A stretch of 5,355 nucleotides of DNA from assembly GCF_003334255.1 (NCBI RefSeq), contig NZ_QOWU01000105.1. The stretch is one strand, 5' to 3'. This DNA is from Escherichia coli (GTDB lineage: Bacteria; Pseudomonadota; Gammaproteobacteria; Enterobacterales; Enterobacteriaceae). The translations under genes and the position numbers were made by a program. The notes beneath the pieces are model-generated. The model saw only the letters and a program-made list of their open reading frames with translations, searched no databases and was not told where the DNA came from. Position 1 is the first letter of the stretch, and every line of letters begins with the position of its first letter. Positions 1-5,354 of this stretch are shown piece by piece.

Positions 1-105
1 AGTTATCGTGAGAGTAATTCATCGGCACGTTAAATCATATCAGGCGTAATACCACAACCCTTAAGTTAGCGCTTATGGGATAATTCCCCGGTTTTTTTAC
101 GCCTG

Positions 106-2295
106 TTAATCAGCTAATGGCTGCGGGCGACCAATCAAATACCCTTGCAGATATTGCACCCCGAGCTTATGCAATAGCGCCTGCTGCTGTTGCGTCTCGA
201 CAAACTCCGCGACCACACTCAATGACTTCGCTTTCGCCAGATCGGTAATTGATCTCACAATCATCGCATCCAGCGTGTTCGTGACAATATCTTTCACAAA
301 GACGCCATCAATTTTGATGATATCAGCCTGCAAACGCTTTAACCGTTCGTAGTTGGCATATCCGGTGCCAAAGTCATCAATCGCAATCCGGAAACCAAAC
401 TTATGCAGCTGCTCGATGTTGTACATGCTGCTTTCTGCGTTAGAAAACGCCTGCTCCTCGGTGATCTCAAGAATGACCGCCTGCGGGGAGATGTGATAAC
501 GCTTAAACAGACGAATAATCCGCCCGGCAATATTCTTTTGCAGCAGCGTGAGCGGCATTAAATTGACTGAAAAGCGCGGTCCTTTTTTGTCGCAAGGGTG
601 TGTTGCCAGCCACTTCAACAAGGATTCCAGCACTTGCAAATCAAAACGCGCGCTAAGGTTAAACTGAGCAATAAGGGGCAGAAACTTATCCGGGGTCATA
701 ATGCCGCCGTCATATTTCAGTCGCGCGAGGATCTCATCATAACCTTCACCCTCTTTGTTGCGAATTGGCTGGGCGTAGAGCAGCAAATCACCCTGATCTA
801 ACGCCGTGCGAATGGTATTCAGCAATAGCACCTGTTTAGTGGTCTGCCCGGAAACCATCTCCTCTCTGCTATCCAGCGCCAGCACATGATGATGTGCGCA
901 GGATTGCTCCGCCAGCCAGCTTAACTGCCCCAACAAGGGTTGCAGGGTTTCCTGATTTCCATCAAAACGCCCCCAGGCAGCACCATAGCCCATATCCAGC
1001 CCGGTATTGTTCCAGTGAATTTGCCGACTATTCAGGATGTTAACCATATGCTGGAGTCGCCCTTCCGTTTCCGGCCCGCTCAGCACTAACAGCAGTTCAC
1101 TACCCGGCAATTGATACAACTTTTCGTTTTCCTGCATCAACGGCAGCAGCGTACGGCAAATTGAGCGGATACAGTGAACGCGCATCATTAAGCCGTAATG
1201 ACGACTCATAAACTCAAGATTATCAATGCGCAGGCAGCAAAAACTCTTGCCCGCCTCTTGCTCCGGCGCTTGTTCCAACGCACGAAAGTTGGGTAGGAGC
1301 GTTAACGGATCTGTCAGCGCCTGCAAATGCCAGCGGCGATTAAGCCATTCACTGCGATGATAAATGCGCACCATATAGAGCAGGCAAACGCTAAAGGAAA
1401 TCAGCACCGCAAGAATAAATGCCAGCGAATATTCGGTTTCCACCCCTTGCAAAAAGTTCTGGTTGTAATTCAGAAGGCAAAGCGTTGAAACAGCCCAGGT
1501 GAGATTTAAAAACGGATAGCGAAGCTTACCGACCCCGAGGGTAAAGATGATGAAGAAAACGGGTACCAGGTAACCGGCAATAAAGTCGTTTTCATAAGGT
1601 GTGCACAACAGAAGTAGCAGCACGCTTAACGCTGCCAGCCAGCTTAAGGTAAATGCGCGTTTCTCTTTGCCCAACGACGGAGCGATATCCCTGCGCCACA
1701 ATATCTGCGCAAAGTGGGGACTTACAATCATGCGAGTGAGATAGTAGAAAAGCATGTTGTAAATCAGCACAGCGGTGAAAAGGCTTAGCAAATCAACGAC
1801 CGTGAAAATGGCATCCGCATCGCCGAAAAAGGTGGATATCTTTAGCGGGAAATCAAAGAAGCTCCCCACAAGATACATGCTGCATTTGATGCCGATCGGC
1901 GTCACCAAACCAAGCCAGAACAGACGTTGCCAGACATATCGGCTGGTCAATCCATAACGCCAACGCGTCCCCAGCTGCCAGCGTAATATTGCGCAGGCAC
2001 ACAACACGACAAACGTCTGGCTACCGAGCATGACCGCAGTCTGTAAAAAAGAGAGATGAAAGTTCCACAGATTGGTGCAAAACATCCCGCATAAAACGGG
2101 AACGACACCGCGCCAGCCAAAGATAAACAAGATTGACAGCATTACGCACAGTGGCATCCACGCCAGAAAGATATAACTGGAATGGATAATGGCAAGTGGC
2201 GAAATAAAACGGGATAGCTGAATAAGTACCACGGTGAGCGTAAACGCTAGTGTGAATATCTTGATATTTTTTATCAGGTTATGCTCCACAAACAT
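106..2295 (-). CDS. pdeA: Cyclic-di-GMP phosphodiesterase PdeA (YfeA): N-terminal MASE1-type integral membrane sensor region, degenerate GGDEF-like middle domain, C-terminal EAL domain
   Basis: Minus-strand ORF 106..2412 in the track. The N-terminal half is strongly hydrophobic (e.g. IFTLAFTLTVVLIQLSRFISPLAII, LCVMLSILFIFGW), consistent with multiple TM helices. The C-terminus carries EAL-domain signatures: QPI...GEGYDEILARL (E-I-L in the EAL position), EITE, DDFGTGYANYERLKRL, KIDGVFV, VAEFVETQQQ. No intact GG[DE]EF motif is visible in the middle region. Stop TAA at 106-108 (plus-strand tta). I place the start at ATG 2293-2295 (MFVEHNL...), giving 729 aa, which matches my recollection of E. 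coli K-12 YfeA. The track ORF extends to a GTG at 2410-2412 and there is another in-frame ATG at 2353-2355; neither has a visible Shine-Dalgarno sequence. Confidence 0.85.
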   Translation of the reverse strand: MFVEHNLIKNIKIFTLAFTLTVVLIQLSRFISPLAIIHSSYIFLAWMPLCVMLSILFIFGWRGVVPVLCGMFCTNLWNFHLSFLQTAVMLGSQTFVVLCACAILRWQLGTRWRYGLTSRYVWQRLFWLGLVTPIGIKCSMYLVGSFFDFPLKISTFFGDADAIFTVVDLLSLFTAVLIYNMLFYYLTRMIVSPHFAQILWRRDIAPSLGKEKRAFTLSWLAALSVLLLLLCTPYENDFIAGYLVPVFFIIFTLGVGKLRYPFLNLTWAVSTLCLLNYNQNFLQGVETEYSLAFILAVLISFSVCLLYMVRIYHRSEWLNRRWHLQALTDPLTLLPNFRALEQAPEQEAGKSFCCLRIDNLEFMSRHYGLMMRVHCIRSICRTLLPLMQENEKLYQLPGSELLLVLSGPETEGRLQHMVNILNSRQIHWNNTGLDMGYGAAWGRFDGNQETLQPLLGQLSWLAEQSCAHHHVLALDSREEMVSGQTTKQVLLLNTIRTALDQGDLLLYAQPIRNKEGEGYDEILARLKYDGGIMTPDKFLPLIAQFNLSARFDLQVLESLLKWLATHPCDKKGPRFSVNLMPLTLLQKNIAGRIIRLFKRYHISPQAVILEITEEQAFSNAESSMYNIEQLHKFGFRIAIDDFGTGYANYERLKRLQADIIKIDGVFVKDIVTNTLDAMIVRSITDLAKAKSLSVVAEFVETQQQQALLHKLGVQYLQGYLIGRPQPLAD

Positions 2296-2336
2296 GAGTA
2301 CACTACTCTCACTGATCGGGGTTTTCAGGCACACAA

Positions 2337-2365
2337 ATAATAAGTTTATTCGCATCGCGAAGCAA
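2337..2365 (-). promoter_or_regulatory. Candidate sigma70 promoter for pdeA (TTGCTT - 17 nt - TATTAT, read on the minus strand)
   Basis: Reverse complement of 2337..2365 reads TTGCTT cgcgatgcgaataaact TATTAT. It would place the transcription start about 35 nt upstream of the ATG at 2295, and its -10 lies inside the longer GTG/ATG-extended ORF, which argues for the 2295 start. The -35 is weak; this is a sequence match only. Confidence 0.2.
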
Positions 2366-2468
2366 ACAGGGGGCCAGCCTGTTGCCGATTTTTCATCCAA
2401 TGATGCTTTCACCAGGCGGCACTAACCCGGACGTAGACTGTATTACAAAAGCGGCAAAAAGCAGAGAC

Positions 2469-2494
2469 AAAAAACCCCCGCTTTGCAGCGAGGG
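2469..2494 (-). terminator. Rho-independent terminator downstream of tRNA-Ala
   Basis: Read on the minus strand: CCCTCGC tgcaaa GCGGGGG followed by TTTTTTGTCTCTGCTTTTT. This is a GC-rich 7-bp stem with one mismatch, then a U-tract, starting about 10 nt after the tRNA 3' CCA. It also insulates the pdeA promoter region from tRNA read-through. Confidence 0.5.
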
Positions 2495-2503
2495 TTGGAA
2501 ATT

Positions 2504-2579
<76 letters not shown>

Positions 2580-2611
2580 GTCACGTAAAGCTTGTCGAGT
2601 TGACGGGCGGC

Positions 2612-2640
2612 ATCATATGAATTCCGCCCGAATGTGTCAA
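2612..2640 (-). promoter_or_regulatory. Stable-RNA-type sigma70 promoter for tRNA-Ala (TTGACA - 17 nt - TATGAT, with GC-rich discriminator)
   Basis: Reverse complement of 2612..2640 reads TTGACA cattcgggcggaattca TATGAT, followed by GCCGCCC. That is a perfect consensus -35, 17-nt spacer, 5/6 -10 and the GC-rich discriminator typical of stringently controlled rRNA/tRNA promoters. The predicted start is about 25 nt upstream of the mature tRNA 5' end at 2579. Confidence 0.55.
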
Positions 2641-2750
2641 CGGCAAATTGCAACGTGTAGTTTCAATCGCTGAAAAATCAGGCAAATGAACAATTTTGGA
2701 AAACCGCTCGCATTCAGTAGTTATTCATGTCACGGTTTCCTGTAAAGTGG

Positions 2751-2759
2751 TGTTATAAA
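2751..2759 (+). promoter_or_regulatory. Candidate extended -10 promoter element for yfeC-yfeD (TGtTATAAA)
   Basis: Plus-strand 2751..2759 reads TG t TATAAA, an extended -10 (TGn + 5/6 match to TATAAT), about 55 nt upstream of the yfeC ATG. There is no good -35 at 16-18 nt spacing, which an extended -10 can tolerate. Sequence match only. Confidence 0.3.
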
Positions 2760-2814
2760 ATGAACTACTAATAGACCCACATACATTCAGGGAATTGTTA
2801 TGTTCAAGGAGAGG

Positions 2815-3159
2815 ATGACACCAGATGAACTTGCCAGACTGACCGGCTATAGCCGCCAGACCATTAATAAATGGGTACGCAAGGAAGGCTGGACAACGTC
2901 ACCAAAACCTGGCGTCCAGGGTGGCAAAGCCCGACTGGTTCACGTCAATGAACAGGTTCGTGAATATATTCGCAATGCTGAACGTCCAGAAGGTCAGGGA
3001 GAAGCGCCTGCCCTTTCTGGTGATGCGCCGCTTGAAGTATTGCTGGTGACACTGGCGAAAGAGATGACGCCAGTTGAACAAAAACAGTTTACATCCTTGC
3101 TTCTGCGGGAAGGGATTATCGGATTGTTACAACGCTTAGGGATTCGCGATAGCAAATAA
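2815..3159 (+). CDS. yfeC: YfeC, small putative DNA-binding protein (DUF1323-type, HTH-like N-terminus), function uncharacterised
   Basis: ORF 2800..3159 in the track. The protein MTPDELARLTGYSRQTINKWVRKEGW... has an HTH-like N-terminus (ELARLTGYSRQTINKWV) and clear paralogy to the downstream ORF. I place the start at ATG 2815, preceded by AAGGAG at 2806-2811, giving 114 aa as I recall for E. coli YfeC. An alternative in-frame ATG at 2800 (preceded by AGGGA at 2789-2793) would add MFKER. Stop TAA at 3157-3159. Confidence 0.8.
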   Translation: MTPDELARLTGYSRQTINKWVRKEGWTTSPKPGVQGGKARLVHVNEQVREYIRNAERPEGQGEAPALSGDAPLEVLLVTLAKEMTPVEQKQFTSLLLREGIIGLLQRLGIRDSK

Positions 3160-3160
3160 T

Positions 3161-3553
3161 ATGAAAAGATTACGCAATAAAATGACCACCGAAGAACTGG
3201 CTGAATGCCTCGGTGTGGCTAAACAAACTGTTAACCGTTGGATCAGAGAAAAAGGCTGGAAAACGGAAAAATTTCCCGGCGTGAAAGGCGGTCGTGCCAG
3301 ACTTATTCTGGTCGATACGCAAGTTTGCGAGTTTATTCAGAACACGCCAGCCTTCCATAACACACCAATGTTGATGGAAGCTGAAGAGAGAATTGCTGAA
3401 TACGCTCCTGGAGCACGCGCCCCGGCGTATCGACAAATCATCAACGCGATAGATAATATGACAGACATTGAGCAGGAAAAAGTCGCGCAATTTTTGTCAC
3501 GTGAAGGAATTCGCAATTTCCTCGCCCGTCTCGATATTGACGAATCAGCATAA
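3161..3553 (+). CDS. yfeD: YfeD, small putative DNA-binding protein, paralog of YfeC, function uncharacterised
   Basis: ORF 3161..3553 (130 aa) starts 1 nt after the yfeC stop (taa t ATG), suggesting an operon with translational coupling. The N-terminal region MTTEELAECLGVAKQTVNRWIREKGWKTEKFPGVKGGRARLILVDTQVCEFI is about half identical by eye to YfeC MTPDELARLTGYSRQTINKWVRKEGWTTSPKPGVQGGKARLVHVNEQVREYI. The C-terminal REGI..L.RL.I segment is also shared. Stop TAA at 3551-3553. Confidence 0.85.
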   Translation: MKRLRNKMTTEELAECLGVAKQTVNRWIREKGWKTEKFPGVKGGRARLILVDTQVCEFIQNTPAFHNTPMLMEAEERIAEYAPGARAPAYRQIINAIDNMTDIEQEKVAQFLSREGIRNFLARLDIDESA

Positions 3554-3558
3554 ATAAA

Positions 3559-3596
3559 AAACGGCAGGATATTATCTCCTGCCGTTTATCTTTTTA
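3559..3596. terminator. Bidirectional rho-independent terminator between convergent yfeD (+) and gltX (-)
   Basis: Perfect 9-bp stem ACGGCAGGA (3561-3569) / TCCTGCCGT (3577-3585) with a 7-nt loop. It is flanked by an A-tract (aaataaaaaa, 3552-3560) on the left and a T-rich tract (ttatcttttt, 3586-3595) on the right, so either strand yields hairpin plus U-tract. It sits 5 nt after the yfeD stop and about 10 nt after the gltX stop. Confidence 0.7.
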
Positions 3597-3604
3597 CACG
3601 CTAA

Positions 3605-5020
3605 TTACTGCTGATTTTCGCGTTCAGCAATAAAATCCAGCGCTTTGTTGATACGCTCGATACTGCGGGTCTTACCAATTGCGTGAACGGTAACATCCAG
3701 TGCTGGAGACTGCCCCGCACCGGTTACGGCGACACGCAGCGGCATACCAACTTTACCCATACCCACTTCCAGCTCATCCGCCGTCGCCTGAATAGCGTGA
3801 TGAACGTTTTCAGCGGTCCAGTCAGTAATCGCGGCCAGTTTGTCACGAACCACTTCCAGCGGCTGACGCGCTACCGGACGCAGATGTTTTTTCGCGGCGT
3901 CGGCATCGAACTCAGCAAAATCTTCGTAGAAATAACGGCAGCTCTGTGCCATCTCTTTCAGCGTCTTGCAGCGTTCGCCCAGCAGTTTCACCAGATCAGC
4001 CAGCTGCGGGCCGTTACGGGTATCGATATTTTCCTGCTCAATGTGCCACTGTAAGTGAGTAGCAACATACTCCGGCGGCAGCGCGTTAATGTAGTGATGG
4101 TTCAGCCACAGCAGCTTGTCGGTGTTGAACGCACTGGCAGATTTGCTGACGGCATTCAAAGTGAAGTATTTGATCATCTCTTCACGAGTGAAGATTTCCT
4201 GATCGCCGTGGGACCAGCCCAGACGCACCAGATAGTTCAGCAGTGCTTCTGGCAAATAACCGTCATCACGATACTGCATTACGCTGACTGCCCCGTGACG
4301 TTTGGACAGTTTTTTACCGTCATCGCCATTGATCATAGAAACGTGCGCGTAAACCGGCACCGGCGCTTTCAGGGCCTTAAGAATGTTGATCTGGCGTGGC
4401 GTGTTGTTGATATGGTCTTCGCCACGGATAACGTGGGTGATTTCCATATCCCAGTCATCGACAACCACACAGAAGTTATAGGTTGGGGAACCATCGGTAC
4501 GGCGGATAATAAGATCGTCCAGTTCCTGGTTGCTGAACTCGATCGGACCACGGATCTGATCGTCAAAAACAACAGAACCTTCCTGCGGGTTAGCAAAACG
4601 TACAACACACGGTTCATCATCAGCATGATGCTCATGGCTGTGGCGGCAGCGACCGTCATAACGCGGCTTCTCACCTTTCGCCATTTGCTCTTCGCGCAGC
4701 GCTTCCAGGCGCTCTTTAGAGCAATAGCATTTATAAGCAGTGCCCTCTTCCAGCATCTGATCGATCACCGCGTTGTAGCGATCAAAACGTTTGGTCTGGT
4801 AGTACGGACCTTCATCCCACTCCAGGCTCAGCCAGTTCATGCCATCCATAATGGCTTCGATAGCTTCCGGCGTGGAACGCTCAAGATCGGTGTCTTCAAT
4901 ACGCAGCACGAACTCACCGCCGTGGTTACGTGCAAAAAGCCAGGAGTAAAGAGCAGTACGCGCGCCGCCAACGTGCAGATAGCCTGTTGGGCTTGGCGCG
5001 AAGCGAGTTTTGATTTTCAT
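3605..5020 (-). CDS. gltX: Glutamyl-tRNA synthetase (GluRS), class I aminoacyl-tRNA synthetase
   Basis: Minus-strand ORF of 471 aa, [49 protein letters not shown]... It has the class I HIGH-type motif (HVGG), the KMSKS-type motif (KLSKR), and a Cys/His cluster (YKCYCS ... GRCRHSHEH) consistent with the known zinc-binding site of E. coli GluRS. Start ATG at 5018-5020, stop TAA at 3605-3607. The sequence matches E. coli GltX as I recall it. Confidence 0.97.
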
Positions 5021-5085
5021 GAAATGGCCTTACGTTTAGAAAGATGCCGACAACCGGCAAATCCTGGAAAAATTAAGTGGGCGAT

Positions 5086-5113
5086 ATTCTATCACTCCCG
5101 CCTGATTCCTCAA
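5086..5113 (-). promoter_or_regulatory. Candidate sigma70 promoter for gltX (TTGAGG - 16 nt - TAGAAT, read on the minus strand)
   Basis: Reverse complement of 5086..5113 reads TTGAGG aatcaggcgggagtga TAGAAT, about 65 nt upstream of the gltX ATG. gltX is known to have several promoters in the gltX-valU intergenic region; I cannot say which one, if any, this corresponds to. Sequence match only. Confidence 0.3.
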
Positions 5114-5233
5114 TGTAGTTCGGGTTTCTACCTTACGCATTATTGTTTTCGTTGACAAATTGCGCAACACGGTCTGTTTTGCGATCATCTTGCTTAAATT
5201 TACGACGAACGAACAATTTCTTTAGAAAATGCG

Positions 5234-5261
5234 TTGACTCATTTTGAACTCTCCCTATAAT
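5234..5261 (+). promoter_or_regulatory. Stable-RNA-type sigma70 promoter for the valU tRNA operon (TTGACT - 16 nt - TATAAT)
   Basis: Plus strand: TTGACT (5234-5239), 16-nt spacer cattttgaactctccc, TATAAT (5256-5261, perfect -10), then GCGACTCC. The predicted start is about 10 nt before the mature tRNA-Val 5' end at 5279. An AT-rich tract (aacaatttctttagaaaat, about 5212-5230) lies immediately upstream, in the position of an UP element or Fis site. Confidence 0.6.
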
Positions 5262-5278
5262 GCGACTCCACACAGCGG

Positions 5279-5354
5279 GGGTGATTAGCTCAGCTGGGAG
5301 AGCACCTCCCTTACAAGGAGGGGGTCGGCGGTTCGATCCCGTCATCACCCACCA
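5279..5354 (+). tRNA. valU: tRNA-Val (anticodon UAC), 76 nt with encoded CCA; first gene of the valU tRNA operon
   Basis: GGGTGATTAGCTCAGCTGGGAGAGCACCTCCCTTACAAGGAGGGGGTCGGCGGTTCGATCCCGTCATCACCCACCA. It has an acceptor stem GGGTGAT/ATCACCC, D-arm GCTC/GAGC, anticodon stem CCTCC/GGAGG with loop CTTACAA (anticodon TAC), T-arm GGTTCGATCC and a 3' CCA. It matches E. coli tRNA-Val(UAC) from memory. Confidence 0.95.

Follow-up and report, generated by a model that had tools for sequence, protein, structure and literature searches.

PdeA of Escherichia coli as a membrane protein with a degenerate GGDEF-like domain and a probably active EAL domain

The Escherichia coli protein PdeA (YfeA) has been assigned the architecture MASE1-GGDEFdeg-EAL by Hengge's group (PMC6510439), whose work also describes it as proteolytically unstable (PMC6510439, PMC5635695). 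According to Lacey et al., the GGDEF domain of YfeA is inactive and its EAL domain active (PMC3718329). Table 1 of Spurbeck et al. 2012 (PMC3484386) lists MASE1, PGSEL and EILR for yfeA, together with an intact EAL residue string that is the same as those of yciR, yfgF and yhjK. In Salmonella, the decrease in cyclic di-GMP (c-di-GMP) and aggregation that 5-oxoproline induces depends on YfeA (PMC9509341). The present analysis concerns pdeA (yfeA, b2395) in a stretch of 5,355 nucleotides (nt) of E. coli DNA (assembly GCF_003334255.1, contig NZ_QOWU01000105.1), referred to here as the window. The gene very probably encodes a 729-residue inner-membrane signalling protein, translated from the ATG at position 2295, in which a dead cyclase-like domain is followed by an EAL domain that degrades c-di-GMP. 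The gene, its architecture, the EIL and PGSEL motifs and the start codon are already present in databases and papers; in these respects the analysis restates published annotation and holds nothing novel.

The open reading frame (ORF) at positions 106 to 2412 of the minus strand comprises 768 residues when counted from GTG 2412. It is a 100% match to MG1655 and to annotated pdeA, and the RefSeq start lies 117 nt inside it, giving the 729-residue product. The MG1655 RefSeq protein (NP_416896) has the same sequence, coordinates and annotated start as the window gene. Identity to MG1655 is 100% across window positions 55-2579 and 2499-5354, the sole gap being one copy of the alanine transfer RNA (tRNA-Ala) gene, and all 5426 complete E. 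coli genomes have a matching locus. The gene order across the window is nupC/IS186, pdeA, tRNA-Ala, yfeC, yfeD, gltX and valU. The synteny gltX-yfeD-yfeC-(tRNA-Ala)-pdeA-nupC-mntH also occurs in Salmonella, C. rodentium and E. hormaechei; sequence identity and this conserved synteny place the protein in the PdeA/YfeA orthologous group of Enterobacteriaceae. The Salmonella, Citrobacter and Enterobacter loci were found through a homologous-protein search and the encoding contigs, whereas a contig scan with exact peptide patterns yielded only Escherichia. Among the NCBIfam models, PdeA passed no equivalog model.

Several lineages carry altered copies of the gene. It is disrupted by an IS1 insertion in strain C21, and truncated products with MASE1 only or EAL only are found in Shigella flexneri and some E. 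coli; some backgrounds can therefore do without pdeA. Residues 17-226 of E. coli PdeA are encoded, with 100% identity, on a 631-nt contig labelled Bacillus hominis (NZ_BOQD01000653.1), which is almost certainly E. coli contamination of that assembly.

Comparison of the PdeA EAL domain with structurally characterised EAL phosphodiesterases gave E values from 1e-24 to 1e-38, the nearest PDB relatives being the EAL domains of MucR, RbdA and MorA (best E 1e-38). Alignment with PdeL/YahA, PdeF, PdeH and PdeK showed that the metal-binding and catalytic residues are complete. Residues Q509, E521, L523, R525, N578, E610, E613, D640, D641, K661, D663, E697, E700 and Q717 of PdeA correspond, in this order, to Q127, E141, L143, R145, N200, E232, E235, D262, D263, K283, D285, E319, E322 and Q339 of PdeL. 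The metal ligands N578, E610, D640, D641 and E697 are thus present together with the catalytic lysine K661 of the KxD motif. Loop 6 is intact, with DFGTGYANY at the DFG(T/A)GYSS site and with its anchoring E613, the second Glu of ExxE, and Q717 of QGY. The core positions of the domain are conserved in 106 full-length PdeA orthologues of 55-99% identity. A reading made from the sequence alone (the sequence-only reading) had listed the signatures QPI, EITE, DDFGTG, KID and EFVE, and all of these were located in the protein and its alignments. It had also suggested a dedicated phosphodiesterase or a sensor with modified activity; the loss of the GGDEF motif and of the cyclase residues, with the EAL catalytic set kept, agrees with the former, and the EAL domain probably hydrolyses c-di-GMP to 5'-phosphoguanylyl-(3',5')-guanosine (pGpG).

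The motif that gives the domain its name reads DEILARL in PdeA (positions 718 to 738, minus strand). In the alignments it sits at the E-x-L-x-R site, opposite ELLLR of RbdA, EVLVR of PdeL and EILLR of PdeF, with the metal-binding E521 and the phosphate-binding R525 in place. EIL is kept in nearly all of the 106 orthologues. The middle residue was surveyed in the best 150 representatives of 50%-identity clusters drawn from 1.8 billion proteins, which included 109 domains with all nine core residues intact. Among these 109 it is Ile in 60, Val in 38, Leu in nine and Ala in two; elsewhere it is Val in PdeL and PdeK, Leu in PdeH and RbdA, Ala in MucR and Ile in PdeF. The letters of the unusual motif noted in the sequence-only reading are therefore right, but the supposed departure from the norm is not borne out, EIL being the commonest form among the 109 relatives. 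Judged from these counts, isoleucine is an ordinary variant at a variable position, and EIL is the norm near PdeA whereas EAL is rare. The idea that EIL marks a modified activity was rejected, since it is the majority form among the relatives and the active paralogue PdeF also has EIL. An expectation that the motif must read E-A-L is wrong for the PdeA subfamily, in which Ile and Val dominate.

A case for modified activity can really be based only on a different site in the EAL pocket. A passage of PMC6629876 quotes a checklist of 9-10 residues for EAL activity, attributed to the TBD1265 study, that includes Glu546. By spacing, Glu546 is the Glu of F-x-P-x-A-E-x-x-G-L, i.e. E164 of PdeL; its role is taken here from this secondary citation. 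PdeA reads FLPLIAQFNLS at this site, and IAQFNLS is conserved in essentially all orthologues. Among the 109 intact relatives, the PdeL E164 column holds Glu in 75 (69%) and other residues in 34. Many of these 34 are the closest relatives, of about 720-735 residues, in which Glu stands one position later (x-E-F-x-L). PdeF has His in the column and Glu next to it (AHEF), PdeA has Gln at the shifted position, and Arg occupies the column in the master phosphodiesterase PdeH. The Ala543-Gln544 change is judged to be probably tolerable because the metal ligands and the catalytic Lys are intact and because the fall in c-di-GMP in Salmonella needs an orthologue that shares this motif. Alignment to characterised EAL domains had been proposed in the sequence-only reading as a check for the loss of an essential catalytic residue; the metal ligands, the catalytic Lys and the Arg of ExLxR proved to be kept, but the Glu546 equivalent is missing. 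In a further, improbable reading, the 'AE' Glu was replaced through a register shift of one residue, shared with PdeF-like relatives, followed by a Glu-to-Gln change, which could distinctly alter substrate affinity or make basal activity very low; the protein would then be switched on by MASE1 signalling or proteolytic release, or would act mainly as a c-di-GMP-sensing trigger and not as a bulk hydrolase. Ala543-Gln544 is the single genuine departure in the EAL pocket that the orthologues conserve.

Several observations weigh against PdeA being an active phosphodiesterase that starts at ATG 2295. The column of TBD1265 Glu546 and PdeL E164 holds Ala543 instead of Glu, and no in vitro measurement of phosphodiesterase activity for E. 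coli PdeA was found in the accessible literature. Deletion of yfeA in uropathogenic CFT073 lowered biofilm formation, and the defect was complemented by a heterologous cyclase and by a heterologous phosphodiesterase alike (PMC3484386); the active domain is therefore not assignable genetically. The MG1655 RefSeq product name is still 'putative'. The published transcription starts of the gene have 3 and 7 reads behind them, and their source table holds many low-count sites. The first three of these points would also fit PdeA as a catalytically silent c-di-GMP receptor or 'trigger' protein, like LapD, FimX and CsrD, silenced through the loss of the Glu546 equivalent. However, PdeA and its orthologues keep intact the metal ligands, the catalytic Lys, DDFGTG with loop 6 and the ExLxR Arg, whereas the inactive FimX lacks DDFGTG. 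The Glu is likewise missing from the PdeL E164 column in PdeH and, with its replacement one residue later, in PdeF, which is reported to be active. Glu one residue later is seen in many close relatives, and the Gln that PdeA has in that place is isosteric with it. In addition, the Salmonella orthologue that needs to be present for the c-di-GMP drop has the same IAQFNLS (PMC9509341). A silent receptor is thus improbable, and hydrolysis by the EAL domain is preferred.

The start of the protein was assigned to ATG 2295, on which five independent lines agree. The starts GTG 2412, ATG 2355 and ATG 2295 proposed in the sequence-only reading are all present in frame, and two more had been missed (TTG 2400 and GTG 2334). 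The chance that 42 upstream codons are open is about (61/64)^42 = 0.13 by our own calculation; the long ORF is therefore not remarkable in itself. ATG 2295 is the annotated start in RefSeq for MG1655 and in genomes annotated by the Prokaryotic Genome Annotation Pipeline (PGAP). Most orthologues have 729 residues; in Citrobacter, Salmonella, Enterobacter, Lelliottia, Leclercia and Kosakonia their length falls mostly within 727-732 residues, and their first Met aligns with ATG 2295 or two residues downstream of it. The 117 nt upstream carry indels of 1-2 nt in four other Escherichia lineages; in-frame stops occur at -30 in E. whittamii, -57 in Salmonella and -21 in E. hormaechei, and the frame is also broken in C. 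rodentium. By comparison, the 22 nt preceding ATG 2295 are invariant in Escherichia, as is the block CAGTGAGAGTAGTGTACTCATG. The Shine-Dalgarno signal is weak at every start; the duplex with the anti-Shine-Dalgarno sequence at ATG 2295 is the best among the six candidate starts (-4.0 kcal/mol, spacing 8), a value equalled by 26% of background 22-mers.

The transcript data point to the same start. Table S1 of Kim et al. 2012 (PMC3415461) gives a yfeA start at NC_000913.2 position 2515889 on the minus strand (3 reads, 5' untranslated region of 35 nt). In the window this is position 2330, 7 nt downstream of the TATTAT hexamer, and a transcript that begins there cannot encode the longer versions of PdeA. 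The arrangement TTGCTT-N17-TAT(T/C)AT hardly varies among Escherichia, Citrobacter, Salmonella and Enterobacter, in contrast to the diverging sequence on either side; it is the main pdeA promoter, weak, conserved and of the sigma-70 type. A preference for ATG 2295 had been argued from the -10 box lying inside the longer versions, and this argument is upheld by the start at 2330, the conserved promoter and the broken longer frames. The same table places a distal 5' end at 2515987 on the minus strand (7 reads), window position 2428, about 45 nt after the tRNA-Ala terminator (2496..2473), which may be a read-through or processing product. An Rfam scan of the 5' region returned two tRNAs only, and no riboswitch or small RNA.

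The distal 5' end bears on whether the 2428 transcript is translated from ATG 2355 or GTG 2412 into a longer isoform of 749 or 768 residues, which would yield peptides from MKASLDEKSATGWPPVCFAMRINLLFVCLKTPISESSVL. The 5' end at 2428 (7 reads) lies upstream of all candidate starts, and the frame is open in the window strain. However, the frame from GTG 2412 is kept in none of seven relatives and that from ATG 2355 in one of seven, with the stops at -21, -30 and -57 given above, and neither of these upstream starts has a Shine-Dalgarno sequence. The supposed extension would contain the proximal promoter, a segment whose conservation is that of a promoter, and the distal 5' end lacks a good -10 box and stands just past the tRNA-Ala terminator. 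The long N-terminal isoform was rejected because its frame is not conserved, and its production is very improbable. A transcription start upstream of 2412 with translation from the GTG had been named in advance as the finding that would overturn ATG 2295; the 5' end does exist, but translation from GTG 2412 is unsupported.

The middle domain of the 729-residue protein has PGSEL where GG[DE]EF is expected, as the sequence-only reading had anticipated in reporting no intact motif there; no GG[DE]EF motif occurs anywhere in PdeA, the Pfam match is weak and partial, and PGSEL is conserved among the orthologues. A PDB search with the single sequence of the middle region gave nothing significant, whereas with a profile of 22 orthologous middle regions the only PDB relatives were diguanylate cyclase GGDEF domains (DgcZ, E 0.003). 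Against the DgcZ stretch DIDRFKLVNDTYGHLIGD, PdeA has Arg for the first Asp, Glu for the Lys, Ser for the Asn and Val for the last Asp, so the residues that bind metal and guanosine triphosphate (GTP) in cyclases are replaced. The published cyclase-residue string is likewise ESRLVQ for yfeA versus KNDHDR (PMC3484386, Table 1). An AlphaFold2 model of the region has a predicted local distance difference test score of 83 and a predicted template modelling (TM) score of 0.79, and a Foldseek search with it returned only GGDEF domains as top PDB matches (E ~1e-10, TM 0.7-0.77). Alignment and model thus predict that the GGDEF fold is retained and the cyclase chemistry lost. Identities to E. coli PdeA are 0.73 for the GGDEF-like domain, 0.77 for EAL and 0.63 for MASE1 in the Citrobacter/Salmonella group, and 0.62, 0.66 and 0.49, respectively, in the Enterobacter group. 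As the GGDEF-like domain is nearly as conserved as EAL, it must still have some role, probably as a structural or dimerisation relay. That PdeA is a bifunctional diguanylate cyclase/phosphodiesterase, as its PGAP product name in many genomes has it and as the presence of a GGDEF fold might suggest, is hardly credible given the PGSEL signature, the four replaced residues, the marginal Pfam match and the published classification of the domain as degenerate or inactive. This reading was rejected on the lost cyclase active site, and the RefSeq name 'bifunctional diguanylate cyclase/phosphodiesterase' claims more than the sequence supports.

The features fit a mechanism in which signal is taken up by the N-terminal module and passed to a phosphodiesterase. 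Hydropathy analysis showed at least eight hydrophobic segments between residues 7 and 309. MASE1 would take up a signal at or in the membrane, which in the Salmonella orthologue depends on 5-oxoproline. The middle domain, with the GGDEF fold but with the GTP-binding residues lost by alignment, would not synthesise c-di-GMP and would act as the relay. The C-terminal EAL domain would use the two-metal set E521, N578, E610, D640, D641, K661 and E697, further including R525, E613, E700 and Q717, to convert c-di-GMP to pGpG, which would lower c-di-GMP-dependent matrix production and aggregation. The analysis establishes which gene this is, how its domains are arranged, which residues are kept, where translation starts and that the promoter is conserved; the catalytic activity, the relay and the kind of signal are inferred.

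Table 1. Features of the pdeA locus in window coordinates.
Feature	Position	Strand	Basis or remark
pdeA coding sequence, 729 residues plus stop codon	106..2295	-	stop codon 106-108; RefSeq 2190 nt in MG1655 and K-12-type records
EAL phosphodiesterase domain (predicted), residues 493-724	124..819	-	Pfam PF00563, E 3e-59, model positions 2-236/236
DDFGTG (D640, D641; start of loop 6)	361..378	-	alignment
EITE (E610, E613)	457..468	-	alignment
Ala543-Gln544 at 'AE' Glu position (PdeL E164; TBD1265 Glu546 by spacing)	664..669	-	alignments
E521-I522-L523, E-x-L signature (R525 at 721-723)	727..735	-	alignments
Degenerate GGDEF-like domain, residues ~326-468	892..1320	-	Pfam PF00990, E 8e-4, model positions 1-108/161
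PGSEL (residues 397-401) replacing GG[DE]EF	1093..1107	-	alignment to DgcZ GGEEF
MASE1 integral-membrane sensor domain, residues 16-315	1351..2250	-	Pfam PF05231, E 4.4e-67, model positions 2-298/299
Non-coding 5' region open in frame; starts GTG 2412, TTG 2400, ATG 2355, GTG 2334	2296..2412	-	indels and stops in relatives
Weak Shine-Dalgarno-like GAGAG	2306..2310	-	upstream of ATG 2295
Published transcription start, 35-nt 5' untranslated region	2330	-	Kim et al. 2012; 51-nt sequence matches window exactly
-10 element TATTAT (hexamer of the sequence-only reading)	2337..2342	-	-12..-7 relative to published start
-35 element TTGCTT, proximal pdeA promoter	2360..2365	-	17 nt upstream of -10 box
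Distal published 5' end, 133-nt 5' untranslated region	2428	-	16 nt upstream of GTG 2412; no good -10 box

The surroundings of pdeA in the window include several further features. The tRNA-Ala(GGC) gene at 2504-2579 on the minus strand is a single copy, whereas MG1655 and most E. coli have the tandem pair alaX and alaW. The difference is an exact deletion of 115 nt, one copy plus spacer (window 2499-2579), fitting recombination between the repeats. The tRNA gene is preceded by a sigma-70 promoter close to consensus, TTGACA-17-TATGAT (2612-2640, minus strand), and followed by a strong intrinsic terminator (2473-2496, minus strand). On the other side of pdeA, the first ~80 nt of the window (1-99) are the end of an insertion sequence of the IS186/IS421 type with a 96% match to the left end of MG1655 IS186C, reversed; the copy beside pdeA seems to be opposite in orientation to that of MG1655. 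On the plus strand, yfeC (2800-3159) and yfeD (3161-3553) are adjacent paralogous genes of the YfeC-like helix-turn-helix type. The start of yfeC differs between annotations, being ATG 2815 (345 nt) in MG1655 and ATG 2800 (360 nt) in PGAP and the ORF list; Kim et al. 2012 (PMC3415461) place the yfeC transcription start at window position 2755.

Compared with known systems, the window gene is the same as that of E. coli K-12 PdeA (NP_416896), and only the surroundings differ, with one tRNA-Ala gene versus two and the other IS186/IS421 orientation. Caulobacter crescentus PdeA (CC3396) shares the name but is not an orthologue; structures of its EAL domain are among the PDB matches of the E. coli PdeA EAL domain. 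It has a degenerate GGDEF(deg) domain ahead of an active EAL domain, and this domain (GEDEF), though degenerate, continues to bind GTP, which activates the protein allosterically. A corresponding activation of E. coli PdeA by GTP is unlikely because the GTP-binding residues are replaced in the PdeA alignment. PdeL/YahA, MucR, RbdA, MorA, RocR and TBD1265 belong by sequence to the same EAL fold family and have the same metal-binding and catalytic residues as PdeA. However, PdeL, MucR and RbdA have Glu at the 'AE' position, where PdeA has Ala543-Gln544, and PdeA carries the MASE1 membrane module. YfeA of Salmonella Typhimurium (STM2410), for which there is an in vivo phenotype, that to 5-oxoproline, is a syntenic orthologue of 729 residues and ~69% identity that shares EIL, PGSEL, IAQFNLS and the conserved promoter with PdeA. 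Within E. coli, the anaerobically induced PdeF (YfgF) has the same MASE1-GGDEFdeg-EAL architecture at 30% identity. Both proteins have EIL and the same EAL catalytic residues, and both lack Glu in the PdeL E164 column; they differ in AHEF of PdeF versus IAQF of PdeA at that site, and in SGNDL of PdeF versus PGSEL of PdeA at the GGDEF site.

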